NCBI GenBank assembly: GCA_016700015.1
Contig: CP064995.1
Location: forward strand, 450,001 to 482,000
Direction: 5' to 3'
Length of the DNA: 32,000 bases
Origin: Candidatus Saccharimonadota bacterium
GTDB lineage: Bacteria; Patescibacteriota; Saccharimonadia; Saccharimonadales; Saccharimonadaceae
The notes beneath the pieces were generated by a model. The model made no database searches. It was not told the origin of the DNA and was given only the letters and a program-made list of their open reading frames with translations. How positions within the stretch are numbered: the stretch's first letter is position 1; every line of letters starts with the position of its first letter. Made by a program: the position numbers and the translations under genes. Of the stretch, positions 346-28,144 are shown piece after piece.

Positions 346-445
346 ACCACCCCCTAAAGCCGATGCTACGCATCGTTGTACTTTACGGGGCGACCACATT
401 TGTTGATGCAATAGCCACTCTGTAGTGATACGGGGTGGTTTTGTA
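346..445 (+). terminator. Structured rplL 3' region, putative intrinsic terminator
   Basis: ACCACCCC (346-353) pairs with GGGGTGGT (432-439) and is followed by TTTTGTATT. A nested perfect hairpin CGATGC-TAC-GCATCG lies at 361-375. The outer loop is long, so the exact fold is uncertain. Confidence 0.4.
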
Positions 446-476
446 TTGTGGGGTAGTCTCAGGTAGGTCAAAATGC

Positions 477-505
477 TTGACTTTTTATGATTGTCGTGCT
501 ATAAT
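477..505 (+). promoter_or_regulatory. Near-consensus sigma70-type promoter for the 545-1192 gene
   Basis: TTGACT (477-482), 17-nt spacer, TGc extended -10 (497-499), TATAAT (500-505). AAGGAG (535-540) lies 4 nt before GTG 545. Confidence 0.6.
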
Positions 506-544
506 GGTATATAGTAAGCCATAATCCATCTAGTAAGGAGCACC

Positions 545-1192
545 GTGGCTCGTACCAGCACAGCCCGTCGTCCGCAGTCGCCGAAGAGCATCGCTGTCGT
601 CCGCCATCGTGCGGCCGCCAACCGCGCCGCGTTCATGGCGAAGATCGTGGTGTTCGACGAGCACGGCAACCTTGTCGAAGACAGCTCACACCCGAAGGCG
701 GGTGTGAAGTACGACAAGTGGCGCAAGCAGGGCCGGGCAGAGAAGCGCGCCCGGCGCCAGGACCAGATGGCCGTCTTCACCCTCGCTGAGGGCGTGGCGG
801 ACACGGTCGACTGGCGCCCGCCGCGGGCGTATCGCAACTCGCTCACTTCCCGTGAGCGGTTCCGCATCGCCAAGTGGGAGCGCGAAGCGCGCCGCCGCGA
901 GGCAGAGTGGTGTCGGCAGGACGCCGAGATGCTCGCCGCCATGGACAAGGCGATGGCCTTTGTCGAAGACAAGGAGCCCATCGCCCCAGTCGCCCCCGAG
1001 CGCAACTTCGGCCTGGCAATGCGCCAGCGAGCCGAGCACGAACGGCATGCATGGACACCCCGGCCCGACAGGCCGCGAGTCGTGCTGCCGCCGCACCTGC
1101 GGGTGCCGGAGGACGAAGAGCGCCGCGTCACCGGCTACCGCGGTGGGCGAACTCGCCACCAGCAGGCTCGGCTCACCTCGGGCGCCTTCTAG
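545..1192 (+). CDS. GC-rich orphan protein (215 aa, Arg/Glu/Ala-rich, no recognisable domain)
   Basis: GTG start behind AAGGAG. This frame has strongly G/C-ending codons (all 10 Lys codons are AAG). A terminator hairpin follows. The competing ORFs in other frames look like high-GC artefacts. Confidence 0.6.
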   Translation: MARTSTARRPQSPKSIAVVRHRAAANRAAFMAKIVVFDEHGNLVEDSSHPKAGVKYDKWRKQGRAEKRARRQDQMAVFTLAEGVADTVDWRPPRAYRNSLTSRERFRIAKWEREARRREAEWCRQDAEMLAAMDKAMAFVEDKEPIAPVAPERNFGLAMRQRAEHERHAWTPRPDRPRVVLPPHLRVPEDEERRVTGYRGGRTRHQQARLTSGAF

Positions 1193-1200
1193 GCGCCACT

Positions 1201-1256
1201 ACGGCCCGACCGTTCCTTTCCCTACAGGGATTGGAGCGGCCGGGTCGTTTCATTTG
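1201..1256 (+). terminator. Putative intrinsic terminator of the GC-rich cassette
   Basis: ACGGCCCGACCG (1201-1212) pairs with CGGCCGGGTCGT (1237-1248) with one mismatch and one G-T pair, followed by TTCATTTG. Confidence 0.5.
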
Positions 1257-3236: not shown

Positions 3237-3887
3237 ATGGCAGAATTTATCAATACTATTGGAGCCATGGGTAGTGGTAAAACACTCGAAGCCATGCGCA
3301 TGCGCTACAACTTGGCGCGGAGACATTTTGGCGTTATTGCTTGCAAATCGCCAGTCGATACCAAAGCCGAAAAACGCATCGAAACACGGTTTAAAGGCAA
3401 AATCCAAGAAGATGTCGACTTTTTGCTCGAACCTGGCAACAATGCCGTAGAGCGTATGCACGCCTACGCCCAGCTGTTACATCCGCAAGCAACCCGCCTA
3501 GCGCTACTGTGCGACGAGGCGCAGTTCATTACACCCGAGCAGGCAGAACAGTTTCGCGACCTTGTTGACGAATATGGCGTGTCAGTGTACACCTATGGCA
3601 TTGAGACGGATTTCCAGCGCCGCTTCTTCCCGGGCTCACTGCGCCTTAGGGAACTCGCCGACGAAAATGTATGGCTAACGAGCATTTGCGATGGCTACCT
3701 GCCTGGGGAGTGTGGCAGTGCGGCGCGGTTTAATACCCGCCTCATAAATGGCAATTTTACTTTCGTAGGTGAACAAACTGCTATCGACGAAGAGGGAACC
3801 TTACAAACTGAGCGACCCGTCACGACGTACCGAGCCCTGTGTGGCGCCTGCTATCATTTGGCCGAGCTAGAATCGAATAGCAAATAA
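3237..3887 (+). CDS. tdk: Thymidine kinase
   Basis: P-loop GAMGSGKT, CDEAQF, YGIETDFQRRFFPGS, and C-terminal Cys pairs (CDGYLPGECG ... CGACY) typical of type II thymidine kinases. Confidence 0.85.
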   Translation: MAEFINTIGAMGSGKTLEAMRMRYNLARRHFGVIACKSPVDTKAEKRIETRFKGKIQEDVDFLLEPGNNAVERMHAYAQLLHPQATRLALLCDEAQFITPEQAEQFRDLVDEYGVSVYTYGIETDFQRRFFPGSLRLRELADENVWLTSICDGYLPGECGSAARFNTRLINGNFTFVGEQTAIDEEGTLQTERPVTTYRALCGACYHLAELESNSK

Positions 3888-5913: not shown

Positions 5914-7265
5914 TGGCCGAGAAGAAGCAAACCCCTGCAGGTAAGATCCCGCCCCAGTCACTCGATGCTGAAATGAGTTTGCTCGGAGCTGTGTTGATTG
6001 ATGAAGAAGTCCTTGCCGATATTAGCGAAGTTGTCACCGCCAAGGATTTTTATGATAAGCGGCATATGACTGTTTACGCTGCAATGATGCGTCTCTATGA
6101 GCACCACAAACCCGTCGACCTACTGACTCTTTCAGAAGAACTAAAGAAGAAAGATGAGCTCGGGGAGGTAGGTGGCAGCGCTTATTTGACCGAACTAACC
6201 AACTACGTCCCTACCGCGGCAAATGCCCGTGCCTATGCCGAACTCGTACAGCAAAAAGCCGTACGGCGTCGCTTGATTCGCGCCAGTGCACAGATTGGTG
6301 AAATGGGCTTCGACGAGGAAACAACCACTCAAGAGCTGCTTGAAAAGGCTGAAGCGGAACTTTTTAGCGTCAGCGACCAATCGCTCAAGCAAGACCTCGT
6401 GAGTATCGAAAGTATTCTGACTGAAAGTTTTGATCGTATCGAGGAATTACACCGCAATAAAGGCGCTTTGCGCGGCATTCGCACTGGGTACCGCGATCTC
6501 GACAACATGACGGCCGGCTTGCAGCGCAGCGACCTCATTATTATCGCCGCCCGCCCTGCGATGGGTAAGACGACGCTCGTCACCAACCTGGCGTATAATG
6601 TCGCTACGATCGCAAAGCTGCCAGTGTTATTCTTTAGCCTCGAGATGAGTAAGGAACAGCTCATCGACCGTATGTTAGCCGATGCCAGCGGTGTCGATAG
6701 TTGGAATATCCGCACTGGCAACCTAAGTGACGAAGATTTTAGCAAGATTAGTGAAGCCATGGGTGAAATGGCTGAAGCGCCGATTTTTATCGATGATACA
6801 CCAGGACTCAGTGTGCTCGAAATGCGCACCAAGGCTCGCCGTGCGGCGCATGATCAACCGCTCGGACTCATTGTGGTTGACTACTTGCAGCTGATGCAGT
6901 CTACCGGTGACTACAAAGGCAACCGTGTGCAAGAGGTGAGCGAAATCAGCCGCGGTCTCAAGCTGATCGCCCGCGAACTGAATGTGCCGCTGATTGCACT
7001 CAGCCAGCTAAGCCGCTTGGTAGAAAGCCGTAACCCACCCATCCCGCAGCTATCAGACCTGCGAGAGTCGGGAAGCATTGAGCAAGATGCCGATCTTGTC
7101 AGCTTTATCTACCGCCCAGGCTACTACGAGCCAGATAACCCTGACATGCAAAACATTACCGATCTTATTATTGCGAAACACCGCAACGGACCCGTCGGCA
7201 AGGTTCAGCTGTACTTCCACCCAGAGCGCCTACGCTTCATGTCGCTCGACAAACGCCGTGAATAG
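5913..7265 (+). CDS. dnaB: Replicative DNA helicase
   Basis: N-terminal PPQSLDAEMSLLGAVL, Walker A ARPAMGKTT, VVDYLQLM, SQLSR and IAKHRNGP motifs. The ATG overlaps the dnaX stop as TAATG. Confidence 0.95.
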   Translation: MAEKKQTPAGKIPPQSLDAEMSLLGAVLIDEEVLADISEVVTAKDFYDKRHMTVYAAMMRLYEHHKPVDLLTLSEELKKKDELGEVGGSAYLTELTNYVPTAANARAYAELVQQKAVRRRLIRASAQIGEMGFDEETTTQELLEKAEAELFSVSDQSLKQDLVSIESILTESFDRIEELHRNKGALRGIRTGYRDLDNMTAGLQRSDLIIIAARPAMGKTTLVTNLAYNVATIAKLPVLFFSLEMSKEQLIDRMLADASGVDSWNIRTGNLSDEDFSKISEAMGEMAEAPIFIDDTPGLSVLEMRTKARRAAHDQPLGLIVVDYLQLMQSTGDYKGNRVQEVSEISRGLKLIARELNVPLIALSQLSRLVESRNPPIPQLSDLRESGSIEQDADLVSFIYRPGYYEPDNPDMQNITDLIIAKHRNGPVGKVQLYFHPERLRFMSLDKRRE

Positions 7266-7295: not shown

Positions 7296-8759
7296 ATGCT
7301 GAAGCATGTCACTGACTATATGTTATACCGATGGCGGTATCTTATCGGCTATGCCGTGATGGTGGCGGCTATTGGCGCCGTGTTTTACTTGGTCGGCCTG
7401 CATGTGCCTGGCGCCCTACGCCAAGCCGAGCTCGACTCGGCGATAAAGAGCGGTAGCTTGTCTATGGAAACACTCGAACCAAGTATGGTCATTGACTTGC
7501 CATATCATATTCTCCAGCGAGTAATATTTATTCTTTTCGGCGTATCAATCGTGACTATCAAGCTACCATCCATTATCATTGCTACCTTGACAACAATCGG
7601 AATTTTCTTGTTAGTGCGCACCTGGTTTCGTCGCAACGTGGCCATCATCGCAACCATCACCGCGGCAACATCGACTCAGTTCCTATTCTTACTTCAAGAT
7701 GGAACACCTCATATTATGTATAGTTTCGTCACAATATGGTTATTATTTGCCTCCACCTACGTCACACGCAACAAGGCATTCAGCACGCTATGGAAGGTTA
7801 TGACCGGGGTACTCATGGCGACAGCTCTTTATACGCCACTTGGGATCTATCTGGTTATCGCAATCCTCACGACGGCGTTCTTTCATCCACACATACGCTA
7901 TACTATTCTGCGTTTTTCGCGTCCAAGGCTATGGATTGGGATTTTTCTGGCACTCGTTTCACTGACGCCCCTTATCTACGCAGCAATCATCGATCGAAAT
8001 GTCTTGTTCACACTAATCGGTCTGCCGGTAGGTGAAATCCACTTGATGAGGAATCTTACCGAAGTTGTCCTCGACTTGTTTGGTTATACCGCACAATCTA
8101 CAACCTATTTTCTCCGCCCTGCTTATTCACTTGGGCTTTTTCTACTTATACTAGTTGGCGTATATAAACTTATTACGTATAAATATACAGCTCGAAGCTA
8201 TATCGCCCTGATACTAGGTCTCGTCATGGCGCCGCTCGTTCTGCTAAATCCAGAGCGCTTGTATGACCTCTTCCCGCTCGCTTGCCTCATGATCGCGCTC
8301 GGTGTGGCGACGCTCATCACTGATTGGTATAAGCTTTTTCCGCGTAATCCCTATGCCCGTATTGCGGGACTAGTGCCGCTTGGCGTATTGATTGTTGGTA
8401 TCGTCTACTCAGGAGTTATCCGTTTTACGGGTAACTACCTGTATAATGGCGCAATTTTGTCGCACTACAGCACCGATGTACGTCATTTACGTCATGCTCT
8501 AGCCGCAAACCAAGCTTCGCCGACGACGACAAAGCTCGTTGTCGCCAAAGAGGAGGTGGCGTTTTATGCCCTTATGGCTCATTACGACAAGCGTTTTACT
8601 GTGACGCAAATTGGTAATCCTGTTTCTGCGCCAGTCACTATACTCAGTCACAATGCCTACCGCCTCGCTAAGCCAACTACCGAACCGACGCAAATTGTTA
8701 GCAACCGCATGACAGAGAATAGTGATCGGTTCTACATCTATAAAACTGCCTCGAAATAA
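7296..8759 (+). CDS. Polytopic membrane protein, possibly a GT-C-type (ArnT/PMT-like) glycosyltransferase
   Basis: 487-aa ORF with many hydrophobic segments. Overall layout resembles GT39/ArnT-like proteins, but no catalytic motif could be confirmed by eye. Confidence 0.6.
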   Translation: MLKHVTDYMLYRWRYLIGYAVMVAAIGAVFYLVGLHVPGALRQAELDSAIKSGSLSMETLEPSMVIDLPYHILQRVIFILFGVSIVTIKLPSIIIATLTTIGIFLLVRTWFRRNVAIIATITAATSTQFLFLLQDGTPHIMYSFVTIWLLFASTYVTRNKAFSTLWKVMTGVLMATALYTPLGIYLVIAILTTAFFHPHIRYTILRFSRPRLWIGIFLALVSLTPLIYAAIIDRNVLFTLIGLPVGEIHLMRNLTEVVLDLFGYTAQSTTYFLRPAYSLGLFLLILVGVYKLITYKYTARSYIALILGLVMAPLVLLNPERLYDLFPLACLMIALGVATLITDWYKLFPRNPYARIAGLVPLGVLIVGIVYSGVIRFTGNYLYNGAILSHYSTDVRHLRHALAANQASPTTTKLVVAKEEVAFYALMAHYDKRFTVTQIGNPVSAPVTILSHNAYRLAKPTTEPTQIVSNRMTENSDRFYIYKTASK

Positions 8760-10118: not shown

Positions 10119-11175
10119 ATTCACCTCCATTCCGTTTTGAATCAGGACACCCGATGCTAGACAATACACACCATGAAGAAAGCATCAAAGGTAACGGATG
10201 CCGAGCGAAGCGAGATAGACATCCTCCATACCAAAGGCTATTCTGCACGGGCCATCGCCCGTGCATTGGGGCGCAGTCCCAATACCATTGCGACCGAGCT
10301 GCAACGCAATAGCCTCAAGGATGGGAGATACGTCGCTACCCACGCCAAACACAAAGCCTATGTACGGCGTAAGTATGCTCGCTACCAAGGCAAGAAGATT
10401 CAAGACAATGACGAGCTTCGCTCGTTCATCGTCCTGAAACTCTCTGAGCACTGGAATCCAGACGAGATAGCCGGCTATCTCAGAGCCAACTCAGCGCTTG
10501 GTATCTATGCCAGCAAGACGGCCATCTATGAATGGTTGCGCAGTGCCTGGGGACAACAGTACTGCCCGTTGCTGTACTCGAAGCGTTACCGCAAGAAACC
10601 ACGCAGACAACTCAGGGCGGGTCACGTCATGATTCCCGACCGCACTTCCGTCACAGAGCGACCGCTGGTCGCTCTAGACCGAGCCGAGACCGGTCACTGT
10701 GAATACGACAGCGTCGTGAGCAGCAAGCACCCAGGGAGCGCCTCTGCACTCGCTGTCCTTACCGAACGGTCTTCACGACTGGTACGAGCGAAGCTCGTAC
10801 CTAACCTGAAGCCAGAGCCGTACGCACACACCATCTCGCGACTCGCGAGTGGGCTGGGGGTTCGCAGTATGACGACCGATAACGGCATCGAGAACAGGCG
10901 CCACGCACTCGTCACTAATAAGACGGGCGCGCCCGTCTTCTTTACTGACCCCTATTCCTCTTGGCAAAAAGGCAGTGTCGAGAATGCCAACAAGATGCTG
11001 CGTCGCTACTTCCCGAAGGGCACCGACTTTGCTACAGTGACACAAACGGATGTTGACAATGCGCTAGCACGCATTAACAACAAGCCGAGGAAGATCCTCG
11101 GCTACAAAAGTTCATTACAAGTTGCAAAAGAGAAAGGATTAATTCTAGAGGGAGTGTCCTGATTGGGGGGTGAAT
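10119..11175 (+). mobile_element. IS30-family insertion sequence (boundaries approximate)
   Basis: A single transposase ORF. Imperfect terminal inverted repeats: ATTCACC (10119-10125) plus AATCAGGACAC (10140-10150) match the reverse complement of GTGTCCTGATT (11154-11164) plus GGTGAAT (11169-11175). The transposase stop lies inside the right repeat. Confidence 0.6.
10173..11162 (+). CDS. IS30-family DDE transposase
   Basis: N-terminal HTH (GYSARAIARALGRSPNTIATELQRNS). Catalytic region ...TTDNGIEN ... WQKGSVENANKMLRRYFPKG, with exactly 33 residues between the second D and the E by hand count, the IS30-family DD(33)E spacing. Confidence 0.9.
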   Translation: MKKASKVTDAERSEIDILHTKGYSARAIARALGRSPNTIATELQRNSLKDGRYVATHAKHKAYVRRKYARYQGKKIQDNDELRSFIVLKLSEHWNPDEIAGYLRANSALGIYASKTAIYEWLRSAWGQQYCPLLYSKRYRKKPRRQLRAGHVMIPDRTSVTERPLVALDRAETGHCEYDSVVSSKHPGSASALAVLTERSSRLVRAKLVPNLKPEPYAHTISRLASGLGVRSMTTDNGIENRRHALVTNKTGAPVFFTDPYSSWQKGSVENANKMLRRYFPKGTDFATVTQTDVDNALARINNKPRKILGYKSSLQVAKEKGLILEGVS

Positions 11176-24555: not shown

Positions 24556-26961
24556 ATGAACAATAACGAAAAACACTCTATGGGTCAGTACTTACGCGCG
24601 GTCAATTATTTGACAGCAGCGCAAATTTTTTTAGCAGATAACCACCTCATGACGCGTCCGATTACGTTTGATGACGTTAAAAGTCGCTTGCTGGGGCACT
24701 GGGGGAGTGGGCCGGGTATCAATTTTGCCTATGCACACCTCAGTCGTTTTGCTAAAAAATATGACCACGATATGATGTTTGTACTCGGCCCGGGACACGG
24801 TTTTCCGGCGCTGCAGGCCAATTTGTTTCTTGAAGGCACTTTAACCTTAGCTGACCCTACACTCCAGGTGAATCTCGACGGTATTCGTAGGCTATGCAGA
24901 GGTTTTAGCTGGCCGTACGGCTACCCCAGCCACTCTAACCCCGAAACTCCTGGTGTCATACTGGAGGGTGGCGAACTCGGCTACTCACTGAGTACAAGTT
25001 ATGGCGCCATCCTCGACAACCCTGGGCTCATAGTCGCTTGCCTTGTTGGTGATGGAGAAGCTGAAACCGGACCCACGGCAGGTGCCTGGCACCTAAATAA
25101 GCTTGTCAATCCACGCAAAGACGGCGTAGTACTGCCGATCTTGCATCTCAATGGCTACAAAATCAGTCAACCGACAATTTTCGGACGCATGAGTAACTAC
25201 GAACTCATGACACTTTTTAGCGGCTACGGGTACGAGCCTCGCATTGTTGACACAACAAACTGTACAGAGGGAGAAGCACATGACCGCATGGCTGAGACAC
25301 TCGACTGGGCACAGCAAATTATCGAAGAGATAAAAGCGACGACTGACACCGTTAGTCCTCGCATGCCGATGATTATCATGCGCACCCTAAAGGGCTGGAC
25401 AGGTGTCAAGAACCTACCCAATGGCGACAAGATCGAAGGCAACTGCCTCGCACACCAAGTTGTCCTCAACGAGGCCAAGACCGACCCCGAGGAGCTAAAA
25501 CTTCTCAACGAGTGGCTGGGTGGCTACAAATTCGACGAACTCTTTAGCGAAGAAAAGGGCTTTGGTGATTTTGTCAGCGATATTCTGCCTGATACGCTTG
25601 AAAAGCGCATGGGGATGAGCCGTCATGCTCACGGTGGACCTGCCGTATACAAACCGCTTAGCTTGCCACCAGTAGAGCAGTTTGCCGAGGACGCTACCGT
25701 ACCCGGAACGATGGGTAGCAGCAGCATGCGCCGCAGTGGATTGTATCTCGAAGAAGTTTTTCGTCGCAACGCCGACAGTAAAAACTTCCGCTTTATGAGC
25801 CCTGATGAAACCTACTCTAATAAACTTGATGATATCTTCAAAGCTACCAGCCGAAGTTGGCAATGGCCAATCACGAGCTGGGACAAAGACCTCTCTCAGG
25901 ATGGGCGAGTGATGGAAATGTTGTCAGAGCACAATATGCAGGGCCTTATGCAGGGCTATGTACTCACAGGCCGCCATGCTATGTTTGCTAGCTATGAAGC
26001 CTTTTTACAGGTGGTGAGCAGTATGGTCGACCAGTACGCCAAATTCCTCACACAAAGCCGTGGCGTCGAGTGGCGTGGTACCATTCCAAGTATAAACTAC
26101 ATTCTAACAAGTAGCGGGTGGCGCCAAGACCACAACGGATTCAGTCACCAGAACCCCGGGTTTATCGACGACTTACTACGTCGTCAGAGTAACTTTTCAG
26201 ATGTCTACTTCCCAGCAGACGGCAACTGTACGCTTGTAGTACTCGAAAAGATGCTCACCAGTGTGCGCCAAATCAATGCAGTTGTTGCTGGTAAGACTGT
26301 TGAGCCACGCTGGCTCACTGTCGACAAGGCCCGACAGCAAATTGATCAAGGTCTCATGATCTGGGACTTCGCGAGTGATGACAACCCCGACCTAATTATG
26401 GCAGCAGCAGGTGATTACCCTACCAAAGAAACAATGGCAGCAATCGATATCATCAAATCCGAAAGGCCAGATGTACGCATTCGCTGTGTGAATGTTAGTA
26501 GCCTTACAACCATGGGCTTCGGCACACTCAACAATACTGCCGATCAAAAGTTTTTCGACCACATATTTACCGAAAACAAGCCAGTCATTTTCAACTTTCA
26601 CGGCTACCCGCAAACTGTTAAAAGCGTGCTATTTAACTACGCTGTCGACAGTACTCGATTTGATGTGCGCGGCTATAAAGAAATCGGGAGCACCACCACC
26701 CCCTTTGATATGCATGTCCGCAACGAGACCAGCCGTTATGACCTCGTGATTGCCGCCTTTAGACAGCTCGGTCACGATGGCGTAATCCCCTTCGAAGAGG
26801 CCGAGCATTTAGCAGCTCAGTATAAAGCAAAAATTGATAAAAATACTGAATACATCAAAGCCAATGGTATTGACCTACCTGAATTGGATGCTTGGGTGTG
26901 GCCGCCTGCACGTAACCTTGAGCGTGCTCAGGAGGAAGAGTGGCACGGTCAGACGAACTAG
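24556..26961 (+). CDS. xfp: Xylulose-5-phosphate/fructose-6-phosphate phosphoketolase
   Basis: YLRAVNYLTAAQIFL, GHWGSGPG and EGGELGY motifs; about 800 aa. The start is set at ATG 24556, 9 nt after TATACT (24541-24546). The track's extension from 24421 overlaps the divergent promoter region. Confidence 0.9.
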   Translation: MNNNEKHSMGQYLRAVNYLTAAQIFLADNHLMTRPITFDDVKSRLLGHWGSGPGINFAYAHLSRFAKKYDHDMMFVLGPGHGFPALQANLFLEGTLTLADPTLQVNLDGIRRLCRGFSWPYGYPSHSNPETPGVILEGGELGYSLSTSYGAILDNPGLIVACLVGDGEAETGPTAGAWHLNKLVNPRKDGVVLPILHLNGYKISQPTIFGRMSNYELMTLFSGYGYEPRIVDTTNCTEGEAHDRMAETLDWAQQIIEEIKATTDTVSPRMPMIIMRTLKGWTGVKNLPNGDKIEGNCLAHQVVLNEAKTDPEELKLLNEWLGGYKFDELFSEEKGFGDFVSDILPDTLEKRMGMSRHAHGGPAVYKPLSLPPVEQFAEDATVPGTMGSSSMRRSGLYLEEVFRRNADSKNFRFMSPDETYSNKLDDIFKATSRSWQWPITSWDKDLSQDGRVMEMLSEHNMQGLMQGYVLTGRHAMFASYEAFLQVVSSMVDQYAKFLTQSRGVEWRGTIPSINYILTSSGWRQDHNGFSHQNPGFIDDLLRRQSNFSDVYFPADGNCTLVVLEKMLTSVRQINAVVAGKTVEPRWLTVDKARQQIDQGLMIWDFASDDNPDLIMAAAGDYPTKETMAAIDIIKSERPDVRIRCVNVSSLTTMGFGTLNNTADQKFFDHIFTENKPVIFNFHGYPQTVKSVLFNYAVDSTRFDVRGYKEIGSTTTPFDMHVRNETSRYDLVIAAFRQLGHDGVIPFEEAEHLAAQYKAKIDKNTEYIKANGIDLPELDAWVWPPARNLERAQEEEWHGQTN

Positions 26962-26962
26962 C

Positions 26963-28144
26963 ATGGCGCTGATTTTGGTAGCAAATCCAGGTAGTTCATC
27001 ACGCAAATATGCTCTCTACGATGATGGGCCGGACTTACGTGGTACCATGCACTTTGAGATTGAAGATGATCGACTCATCTGTACGCTAATAGAAGCAGGT
27101 GAAGGTGAGCGCCGACTCGATCTCGACTTTGACAAGCTGAGTGATGCAGCGACGCATGTTGAGCAACTCTTTGCACGTGAAGGCCTGCTCAAGGACGATG
27201 AACGTATAACACACATAGGCTTGCGCATCGTGGCACCAAGCAGCTACTTCATGCGTGACCATATCGTTACAGACGAAGTCGTCAATAAGCTTGAGCAGCT
27301 CTACGAGCTGGCACCGCTGCACATCGCCGCTTCACTAGGCGAGCTCAAATTTCTGCGTCAATCACTGCCTCAGGCGACAATCGTCGGCGTGTCCGACAGT
27401 GCATTTCACGCCACCAAACCACCCTATGCCTGGAACTATGGTATCGATATCCATGATAGCGACCGGCTCGATATCAAACGATTCGGCTATCACGGTATAT
27501 CGGTAGCAAGCGCCGTTGATGCGCTATGGAACAAAGGCAAGCTGCCGCCAAAAGTGGTTGTCTGCCACCTTGGTAGTGGTTCCAGCATCACCGGCGTATT
27601 CCACGGCAGGAGCATCGACACCACCATGGGCTACACGCCCCTCGAAGGCTTGCTGATGGCAACACGTAGCGGCAGTATCGACGCTGGCGCACTGCGCGCC
27701 CTGAAAAAGGGCCTAGAAATGAATGACGATCAGCTCGAAGATTACTTGCATACCAAATCCGGCCTGTTGGGCATTGCGGGGAGCGGCGATATTCGCAGCC
27801 TAATTGACAGAGAAGCCGACGGTGACCACATGGCGCACCTCGCATTGACCACTCTTGTTCACACCATTCACAAAGCTATCGGCAGTATGGTGGTCGCTAT
27901 GAACGGCTGCGACTTGCTGGTATTTACTGGTACCGTAGGGGAACGCTCAACCGTGCTGCGCAAACGCATCGTCGCGCACCTTGAATTCATGGATTTTGCA
28001 CTTGATGGTGAGCTCAACGAAGCCTGCACGTCACCAGATACGATGACCACCATCAGCCAAGCAGCCAAATCACGCCCCATCTTGGTCATTCCCGCCAACG
28101 AATCGCTGGAAATTGCCAGGCGCGTTGCCAAAACTACTGCATAA
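26963..28144 (+). CDS. ackA: Acetate kinase
   Basis: MALILVANPGSSSRKY N-terminus and RFGYHGISV motif; 393 aa. ATG 26963 lies 2 nt after the xfp stop. The track start 26834 is an in-frame extension inside xfp. Confidence 0.9.
   Translation: MALILVANPGSSSRKYALYDDGPDLRGTMHFEIEDDRLICTLIEAGEGERRLDLDFDKLSDAATHVEQLFAREGLLKDDERITHIGLRIVAPSSYFMRDHIVTDEVVNKLEQLYELAPLHIAASLGELKFLRQSLPQATIVGVSDSAFHATKPPYAWNYGIDIHDSDRLDIKRFGYHGISVASAVDALWNKGKLPPKVVVCHLGSGSSITGVFHGRSIDTTMGYTPLEGLLMATRSGSIDAGALRALKKGLEMNDDQLEDYLHTKSGLLGIAGSGDIRSLIDREADGDHMAHLALTTLVHTIHKAIGSMVVAMNGCDLLVFTGTVGERSTVLRKRIVAHLEFMDFALDGELNEACTSPDTMTTISQAAKSRPILVIPANESLEIARRVAKTTA

Follow-up and report, generated by a model that had tools for sequence, protein, structure and literature searches.

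Between the gene for ribosomal protein L7/L12 (rplL) and its right-hand neighbor, a 32,000-nucleotide stretch of Candidatus Saccharimonadota DNA (GenBank CP064995.1, positions 450,001 to 482,000, forward strand) carries a GC-rich gene for a 215-residue protein. We refer to the whole 32-kb stretch as the window and number positions from its first letter; L-numbers denote fetched loci, and P0002 is the closest relative protein (50% identity), encoded by L001. Positions 450-1300 are a self-contained, one-gene expression cassette, flanked by the rplL terminator on one side and the next gene's promoter on the other. The family is confined to one group of Saccharibacteria. Its locus is hypervariable and sharp-edged, with alleles that are mosaics of short modules and do not track genome phylogeny, and its GC-richness is a maintained trait, not the scar of a transfer. 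This descriptive core is secure. As a joint explanation we lean, with little better than even confidence, toward a maintained, hypervariable, recombining cassette under transcript selection, with an RNA-binding, Arg-rich product. The functional part of this explanation is a lead drawn from sequence, and both the function and the force that keeps G+C at third codon positions (GC3) high are inferred.

Results

A one-gene cassette behind rplL

The approximate limits of the inserted cassette (450-1300, + strand) were set from the empty sites of non-carriers L022 and L026 and from identity profiles of the window against L001 and of L018 against L095. By the empty sites, the insertion starts just 3' of the rplL terminator; its right limit is a conserved 'ttacaacg' junction (1303-1310) upstream of the promoter of a gene encoding a 171-amino-acid (171-aa) protein. 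Inside lies a promoter (477-505, +) composed of TTGACT, a 17-nt spacer and TATAAT with an extended -10 TG, matching the consensus at 11/12 positions. It is followed by a 5' untranslated region (UTR; 506-544, +) with a conserved AAGYY(A)YC motif (AAGCC, 516-520) and a ribosome-binding site (RBS; AAGGAG, 535-540). The 215-aa open reading frame (ORF) occupies 545-1192 (+) and starts with GTG at 545. A stem-loop (1201-1248, +; -37.9 kcal/mol, z = -6.1) whose GGCCCG/CGGGCC base is conserved and whose upper stem varies closes the unit. Promoter, RBS, start codon, coding frame and overall anatomy are as an earlier first-pass annotation, made from the letters alone, had placed them. Its hairpin also stands and is stronger than described. 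The T-rich tail that it attached is weak (1249-1256; U tract GUUUCAUUU), and a simple consensus terminator scan made no call there. The stem-loop is probably a terminator and/or a 3' mRNA stabilizer.

The ORF is 69.6% GC, with G+C at the three codon positions (GC1/2/3) of 0.73/0.52/0.84; GC3 of the 17 native ORFs in the same window is 0.45-0.62, and the window overall is ~50% GC. The richest 600-nt segment coincides with the ORF (GC 0.70) and lies 6.1 standard deviations above the remaining 32 kb, where the maximum is 0.59. As previously noted, composition switches at the start codon, positions 475-544 being 37% GC. Earlier hand counts were exact on recount (81/120 G+C at 541-660; 18/60 at 1261-1320), and so was the description of codon choice: AAG for 10/10 Lys, GAC for 11/11 Asp, ATC for 4/4 Ile, AAC for 4/4 Asn and TTC for 6/7 Phe.

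An assembly chimera, which the first-pass annotation had considered, is excluded because the identical gene lies between rplL and the same downstream gene in at least eight independent contigs from different samples and assemblers. NCBI lists the identical protein as 'hypothetical protein IPM09_02545 [Candidatus Saccharibacteria bacterium]', which bears out the earlier guess at the organism. In the + frame, GC3 > GC1 > GC2, the pattern expected of a coding frame. Within the two blocks that are conserved in L001 (P0002), nucleotide differences are synonymous, including a first-position CGG/AGG change; this reading by eye of two sequences suggests purifying selection on the + frame in those blocks. 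Alternative and antisense frames are no longer or more open than in synonymous-codon shuffles. Dual coding and an antisense gene were rejected on that ground, and the pile of overlapping ORFs is, as had been proposed, a by-product of composition.

A conserved scaffold with variable contents

Across carriers the RBS, start codon and N-terminal M-A-R-T are conserved, the L012 allele reading M-G-R-T. The promoter signature TTGACWTTTTAT-N8-TGMTAYAMT occurs once in the window (0 expected), as does the UTR signature TGCTATAAT-N4-12-AAGYY. Together, the promoter and UTR signature were found in carriers only, including L024, which has the scaffold alone (99 loci; the promoter motif was first scored in 94); the promoter-motif match of L011 sits at its second mini-cassette. 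Carrier 3' stem-loops have 17-20 bp and -32 to -44 kcal/mol in 7/8 folded segments, the eighth (L008) having been framed so as to miss its stem, and compensatory changes were seen in 8 of 13 aligned pairs.

Several loci depart from the simple layout. In L011, a degenerate second copy (7412-7705) has the same promoter, a start reading 'MSTSTTQPQ', a frameshifted 'LPKHLRTEEPRRERR' C-terminal motif and a stem-loop 80% identical to the first; an opposite-strand membrane-protein gene separates the copies. In L024 (4607-5040), the promoter, the AAGCCATCC UTR motif, a GC-rich hairpin and 'ttacaacg' surround an unrelated 98-aa GC-rich ORF ('MAHNYTGLVK...') that is invisible to the family hidden Markov model; the record is labeled Acidobacteriota and its rplL is Saccharibacteria-like. 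Between main ORF and stem-loop, L008 (~6588-6653) and L012 (~3637-3702) have a 21-codon GC-rich mini-ORF with a GGAGG RBS (MTQYNDAEDRETGWPDEDRPR and MTSHNDADDRRTGWPNEDYPR, respectively). An integron gene cassette was considered and rejected: the 3' stem-loop, read by eye, is a near-perfect GC-rich helix with no conserved GTTRRRY-type core, no integrase was found in the loci, and the cassette has its own promoter.

The family is confined to one group of Saccharibacteria

An exhaustive HMMER search (1.84 billion representatives) and two profile searches (5.8 billion clusters) returned 11 cluster representatives in all, every one from Saccharibacteria; among ~15 billion proteins there was no relative outside this group. 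A GTDB survey through L12 genes (80 species, the best 80 of 254 matches) added carriers L016 and L018 and the scaffold-only L024. Phage and plasmid records yielded no relative by tblastn or blastn, and IMG/VR yielded none. PHROGs had no match for the protein. Nor was there a credible match for protein or DNA in Pfam, PHROGs, NCBIfam, PADLOC or Rfam, in keeping with the earlier remark that the 215-aa product has no recognizable domain. Metagenomes scanned with a protein motif gave no match; the nine-sequence alignment was too divergent for such scanning. With the scaffold promoter they gave 120 consensus promoters, for the most part unrelated, and revealed no further cassette. We found no paper describing the gene or locus.

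In every carrier the cassette is downstream of rplJ-rplL, immediately so except in L012 and L024. An opposite-strand gene intervenes between rplL and the cassette in L024. In L012, and on this contig alone, three sulfur-related genes (Pyr_redox_2, DsrC and DsrE-like; 632-2931) do so. The far-side neighbor varies among carriers and may be the 171-aa gene, a PALP enzyme or an ACC carboxyltransferase. In most Saccharibacteria of the GTDB survey the conserved 171-aa gene follows rplL at ~200-230 nt and is thus the default neighbor. L12 is a weak phylogenetic marker, and its tree resolves poorly; there, most carriers group into a single clade that also includes two non-carriers, and L013 and L024 fall elsewhere.

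The intergenic site between rplL and the 171-aa gene takes small accessory genes in general. Two close non-carriers, L015 (3878-4380) and L017 (3872-4380), have other small ORFs of ordinary GC at this site, with their own promoter and terminator. Four non-carriers with long spacers (L015, L017, L023 and L053) were searched for remnants of the cassette, and none of these spacers resembles it; the sole match in the L017 spacer is the promoter region of the downstream 171-aa gene. Contigs L024, L082 and L093 carry the GTDB labels Acidobacteriota, Verrucomicrobiia and Magnetospirillaceae, with rplL 71-81% identical to the Saccharibacteria query, and are probably mis-binned.

Alleles are sharp-edged mosaics

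The contrast between cassette and surroundings is clearest for L018 and L095. Their flanks are 98-100% identical over more than 1 kb on each side (rplL synonymous divergence, dS, 0.022), whereas from the 5'UTR to just past the stem-loop identity drops to 50-80% with indels (nonsynonymous divergence, dN, 0.23; dS 0.31; 66% amino acid identity). Between the window and L001, flanks are 85-100% identical and the cassette body 30-50%, with two islands of ~80%. The N-terminal 54 residues of the window protein have no counterpart in L001, the nearest background (rplL 92% identical), and match L014, L018 and L095, whose rplL is only 77-81% identical. Many samples of a single species have one and the same protein.

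Whole-gene dN/dS is 0.57-1.16, values that are approximate between poorly alignable alleles. A targeted mutator akin to a diversity-generating retroelement was rejected: the window and four carrier loci contain no template copy, and all substitution classes are present. No reverse transcriptase is found among the annotated neighbors. From these sequence patterns the alleles appear to be old and swapped by recombination, not made by a targeted mutator.

High GC3 is maintained at synonymous sites

All alleles are GC-rich (GC 0.65-0.70, GC3 0.79-0.96) in loci of 0.50-0.53 GC. In L016 and L018, GC2 is native-like (~0.4) but GC3 reaches 0.93-0.96, which places the excess at synonymous sites. G/C-ending codons account for 86-94% of every two-fold amino acid in the alleles, an extreme usage absent from the rest of the genome. 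The adjacent and highly expressed rplJ and rplL prefer GAA, AAA, CCA and GCT, opposite to the cassette for several amino acids; the high GC3 therefore cannot be put down to translational selection for the native tRNA pool.

Divergence between allele pairs reaches dS 0.57-1.18. By our own two-state estimate, which is not a tool result, a neutral GC3 excess should presumably fall to ~0.55-0.68 at dS ~1. That every allele still has GC3 of 0.79-0.96 at dS ~1 shows active maintenance of the composition and not a fading signature of import. Recent changes among three closely related alleles, polarized in small numbers, comprise 22 from G/C to A/T (S>W) and 6 in the reverse direction (W>S), with 7 versus 0 at third positions. 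Mutation therefore pushes toward AT, and something restores or retains G/C.

Other GC3-rich ORFs stand near the cassette or behind similar promoters. Directly downstream of the cassette, L013 (2505-2900) and L014 (6693-7220) have more ORFs of GC3 0.80-0.81, each with a similar TTGAC...TATAA promoter, which suggests that GC3-rich cassettes can stand in tandem. Three metagenome contigs of ~0.48-0.53 GC (L148, L172 and L201) have the same consensus promoter ahead of ORFs with GC3 of 0.80-0.87.

Cassette transcripts fold more stably than synonymous shuffles

Against synonymous shuffles that keep protein and codon usage, a null uncalibrated on genuine high-GC genes, minimum free energy z-scores of the nine alleles range from -1.0 to -6.4 (mean -3.6), whereas 12 native genes average -0.7 (Mann-Whitney p = 0.001). 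The excess is also present in local 60-nt windows, and the sense strand is the stronger in 7 of 9 alleles. Internal repeats were rejected as its cause, the only repeats found being short, GC-rich and attributable to chance. In module-B alleles, the codons for RQPMTRA form a perfect 7-bp hairpin that is nucleotide-identical in three alleles despite dS of ~0.9 and weakened in a fourth.

A disordered, Arg-rich product with a Nun-like motif in two alleles

The window protein has an isoelectric point (pI) of 11.0, 17% Arg and a hydropathy index (GRAVY) of -0.98. Alleles in general are very hydrophilic (GRAVY -0.5 to -1.1) and Arg-rich (pI 4.1-11), with a basic N-terminus, a variable and often acidic middle and, usually, a basic tail. 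An AlphaFold model consists of isolated helices with no globular fold (pLDDT 66, pTM 0.28), and Foldseek of this model against PDB found no match. Its sole confident element is a long helix (residues 102-142, pLDDT 86-96) overlapping a conserved Arg/Glu block (residues 92-135; 818-949, +) defined by alignment with P0002 and the structure model. By these predictions the product is largely disordered, charged and Arg-rich.

Searched against all PDB sequences, the conserved block matched only the arginine-rich motif (ARM) of the phage HK022 Nun protein (1HJI, with lambda boxB RNA; 6ALG, Nun on RNA polymerase). E-values were 0.12 with the single sequence (1hji_B) and 0.015 with a window-plus-L001 profile, where Nun was the top match. 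The matching segment, NSLTSRERFRIAKWERE (residues 98-114; 836-886, +), aligns to RGLTSRDRRRIARWEKR with a score of 55; 20,000 composition-preserving shuffles scored 17.7 +/- 4.7 with a maximum of 47 (p < 5e-5). A tblastn search of the ARM block against phages gave no match, possibly from low-complexity masking. Nun is a 13-kDa protein whose ARM helix recognizes a specific RNA hairpin and whose extended C-terminus jams RNA polymerase, excluding a rival phage (PMC5386594). The ARMs of Nun and N bind the boxB RNA hairpin (nutR boxB sequence, PMC2724277).

A single boxB-class hairpin occurs in the window, at 27698-27712 (+). Its sequence, gccctGAAAAagggc, is that of lambda nutR boxB (PMC2724277). 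The chance expectation of the exact sequence is 1.4e-4, and it is absent from all 219 fetched loci. It lies 26 kb from the cassette within an acetate kinase ORF (26834-28144), where it reads A-L-K-K-G in frame.

A second conserved segment, the C-terminal module PRVVLPPHLRVPEDEERRVTGYRGGRTRHQ (residues 177-206; 1073-1162, +), was defined by alignments and has an Arg/Gly-rich basic tail at its end. The module is common to 7 of 9 allele types; two types are without the basic tail. Against PDB it is weakly similar to the GXXG region of KH domains (36 residues, E 0.2), and no similarity to the Nun C-terminus was detected. A KH-domain protein was nonetheless rejected: there is no Pfam match, 36 residues are too short for the ~70-aa fold, and the region is modeled as disordered (pLDDT 39-59).

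Discussion

A proposed role and what weighs on it

In the explanation that we favor, related Saccharibacteria would exchange alleles by natural transformation and homologous recombination, with conserved flanks and scaffold as the regions of pairing. Such exchange has a plausible route, as Saccharibacteria have been shown to be naturally competent and to recombine by way of homologous flanks (PMC10633639). High GC3 would be kept by selection on the transcript, favoring an mRNA that folds stably, lives long or is translated slowly, and GC-biased repair at this hot spot of recombination may help. The product would be abundant, intrinsically disordered and Arg-rich and would bind structured RNA, with a Nun/N-type arginine-rich helix (residues 98-114) as the binding element of the window allele, thereby modulating transcription or translation of specific transcripts. 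Rapid diversification would reflect an arms race, with Nun-like phage exclusion and host interaction as candidates. A role as a host-interaction factor had been put forward in the first-pass annotation; as a candidate, it is neither supported nor contradicted by our results.

Several observations weigh against this explanation. The Nun similarity spans 14-17 residues at E 0.015-0.12 and is confined to the window and L001 alleles; the remaining alleles, without Nun-type sequence, have Arg-rich stretches of another kind, and in two allele types the protein as a whole is strongly acidic (pI 4.1-4.5). No boxB-type hairpin (GA-N-R-A loop) was found in or near cassette transcripts. The folding excess is partly strand-symmetric and could thus stem from DNA-level features, and the synonymous-shuffle null may act differently in very GC-rich genes. 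A dN/dS of 0.57-1.16 is also expected from weak constraint. The S>W excess, in small counts, may mean slow decay and not a mutation-selection balance, and the cassette may have an ancient origin in a high-GC donor.

The composition in particular has other possible causes. At a recombination hot spot with GC-biased gene conversion, frequent heteroduplex repair between alleles would push third positions and weakly constrained residues to G/C, driving both GC3 and fast protein evolution with no selection on composition. This is the chief rival of transcript selection, or else a contributing force; standing alone, we regard it as unlikely. Mosaic alleles and sharp boundaries do show recombination, Arg, Ala and Pro abound in the proteins, and the G/C bias is uniform across codon families and counter to translationally preferred codons, as excerpts of PMC4450053 describe for recombining bacterial genes. 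A GC3 excess of 30-45 points nevertheless looks too large (our own expectation; the excerpts give no magnitude). In addition, 50%-diverged alleles cannot form the heteroduplex needed for biased repair, the GC step at the start codon is abrupt with no taper, and mRNA folding beyond that of synonymous shuffles is not predicted. The first-pass annotation had instead seen a recent acquisition from a high-GC donor, an Actinomycetota host or actinophage, placed under a local promoter with its GC an unameliorated transfer scar. Composition and codon usage do have the look of a high-GC actinobacterium, Actinobacteria are the hosts of cultivated Saccharibacteria (PMC10633639), and AT-biased recent substitutions are what amelioration predicts. 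Set against this are the lack of homologues outside Saccharibacteria in ~15 billion proteins, phages, plasmids and IMG/VR, and the likeness of slot, scaffold and composition in all carriers despite dS of ~1. The same locus with the same composition recurs in 12 of 12 distinct carrier loci examined, representing 11 alleles, an outcome that the first-pass annotation had itself named as one that would refute import. Of the features by which islands are recognized, a composition unlike the host genome is present (GC 0.70 versus 0.50, z = 6.1); homologues in a plausible donor lineage are not, nor is absence in relatives or a composition that decays with age. Recent import is largely refuted, and we now give it little credence. 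It is highly improbable that the cassette is built for expression in, or exchange with, a high-GC Actinobacteria host, with DNA or mRNA delivered (for example by a relaxase-less type IV secretion system, T4SS) and the ARM protein reprogramming host transcription. Equally far-fetched is the corollary that actinobacterial GC and codon usage are kept for translation there and for escape from AT-rich DNA silencing. Such delivery, if true, would make the cassette a bacterial analogue of Agrobacterium T-DNA.

Two further alternatives concern the nature of the product. Positively charged C-termini act as T4SS signals, and the protein could be an effector secreted via a relaxase-less T4SS, with the Arg-rich C-terminal tail as signal, in an arms race with the host bacterium. 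The hypervariable locus, dN/dS near 1 and the basic C-terminal tail conserved in seven allele types fit this possibility, as does a T4SS that is essential for epibiotic growth and appears co-opted for a non-conjugative role (PMC12102498). The sequence (GRAVY ~-1) has no signal peptide or transmembrane segment, however, no secretion genes are linked within 32 kb, two allele types are without the basic tail, and GC3 is left unexplained; we hold secretion to be decidedly doubtful. Unusually stable folding, and a strong promoter and stem-loop that would suit an RNA gene, are what one would look for if the functional product were a structured non-coding RNA, and a 210-aa antisense ORF (499-1131) might suggest an antisense gene, the + ORF being incidental in either case. 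Both are hardly credible. In the + frame the changes within conserved blocks are synonymous, conservation extends to RBS, start codon and M-A-R-T, and the cassette DNA has no credible Rfam match. The antisense ORF lacks a conserved start and does not exceed the length seen in shuffles; it is an ordinary shadow frame.

Surroundings of the cassette

The left anchor of the locus is the 3' part of rplL (2-337, +; stop codon TAG at 335-337; Pfam Ribosomal_L12, 4.8e-26). The intrinsic rplL terminator follows at 413-450 (+), a 12-pair hairpin with a T tract that was located by terminator scan and by comparison with the empty sites of L022 and L026. A sub-threshold Rfam match to the Enterococcus small RNA Ref55 (395-448; 35.8 bits against a gathering score of 43) coincides with this hairpin and probably reflects only that. 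Neighbors of the cassette in the window include rplJ/rplL, tdk, dnaX, dnaB, recR and transporters. To the right, the 171-aa gene ('MSELPEKQVK...'; 1428-1943, +) has its own promoter-like TTGACA at 1353-1358. Its product has no family assignment. It is 98% identical in amino acids between the window and L001, though DnaX of those genomes is only 70% identical, and its conservation equals that of L12.

Beyond it are two small membrane-protein ORFs (2049-2213 and 2213-2500) with local GC up to 0.62. The patch at 1930-2600 has only 50-60% DNA identity to L001 between flanking genes of 85-100%, and is a second fast-evolving patch. Farther away, a 329-aa ORF (10173-11162, +) encodes an N-terminal HTH_38 domain (8.9e-17), a domain common in IS30-type transposases.

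Comparison with known systems

[quoted passage not shown] It is also a natural case in which a strong compositional anomaly is a long-maintained trait, and detection of horizontal gene transfer by composition would misread it. With many alleles on one scaffold, and with Saccharibacteria now transformable, it offers a test bed for separating the forces on GC content, mRNA-structure selection and biased gene conversion among them. Elevated GC3, non-optimal G/C-ending codons and accelerated protein evolution are features that it has in common with hot-spot genes of biased conversion, as described in excerpts of PMC4450053. It differs from them in a GC3 magnitude that, by our expectation, appears far larger, in the abrupt step at the start codon and in excess RNA folding.

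Phage morons and other autonomous accessory cassettes also have their own promoter and terminator, insert intergenically between conserved genes and differ in composition from their flanks. Morons are typically AT-rich or drifting, whereas the composition here is GC-rich and maintained, there is no prophage, and position is conserved across a bacterial clade. Hypervariable loci under frequency-dependent selection resemble the cassette in the sharp boundaries between near-identical flanks and diverged mosaic alleles. Such loci are usually AT-rich; the cassette, in contrast, encodes a single small, cytoplasmic-looking protein with GC3 much higher than that of the genome at large.

The ARM factors HK022 Nun and lambda N, which act in transcription termination and antitermination of lambdoid phages, are, like the window protein, small, basic and largely disordered, and the Nun ARM aligns with the best-conserved helix of the window allele (LTSR-D/E-R-x-R-IA-R/K-W-E). 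Divergence of N-type proteins is rapid and mosaic, and a prophage expresses Nun. The window protein is twice the size of Nun, its ARM is internal (98-114) and not N-terminal, and the motif occurs in two alleles only. Moreover, Nun and N are phage-encoded, whereas the cassette is chromosomal, beside rplL, with no prophage genes nearby and no PHROG, phage or IMG/VR match. Should the Nun-type helix prove functional, hairpin-guided control of transcription would reach beyond lambdoid phages into a bacterial chromosome of the CPR.

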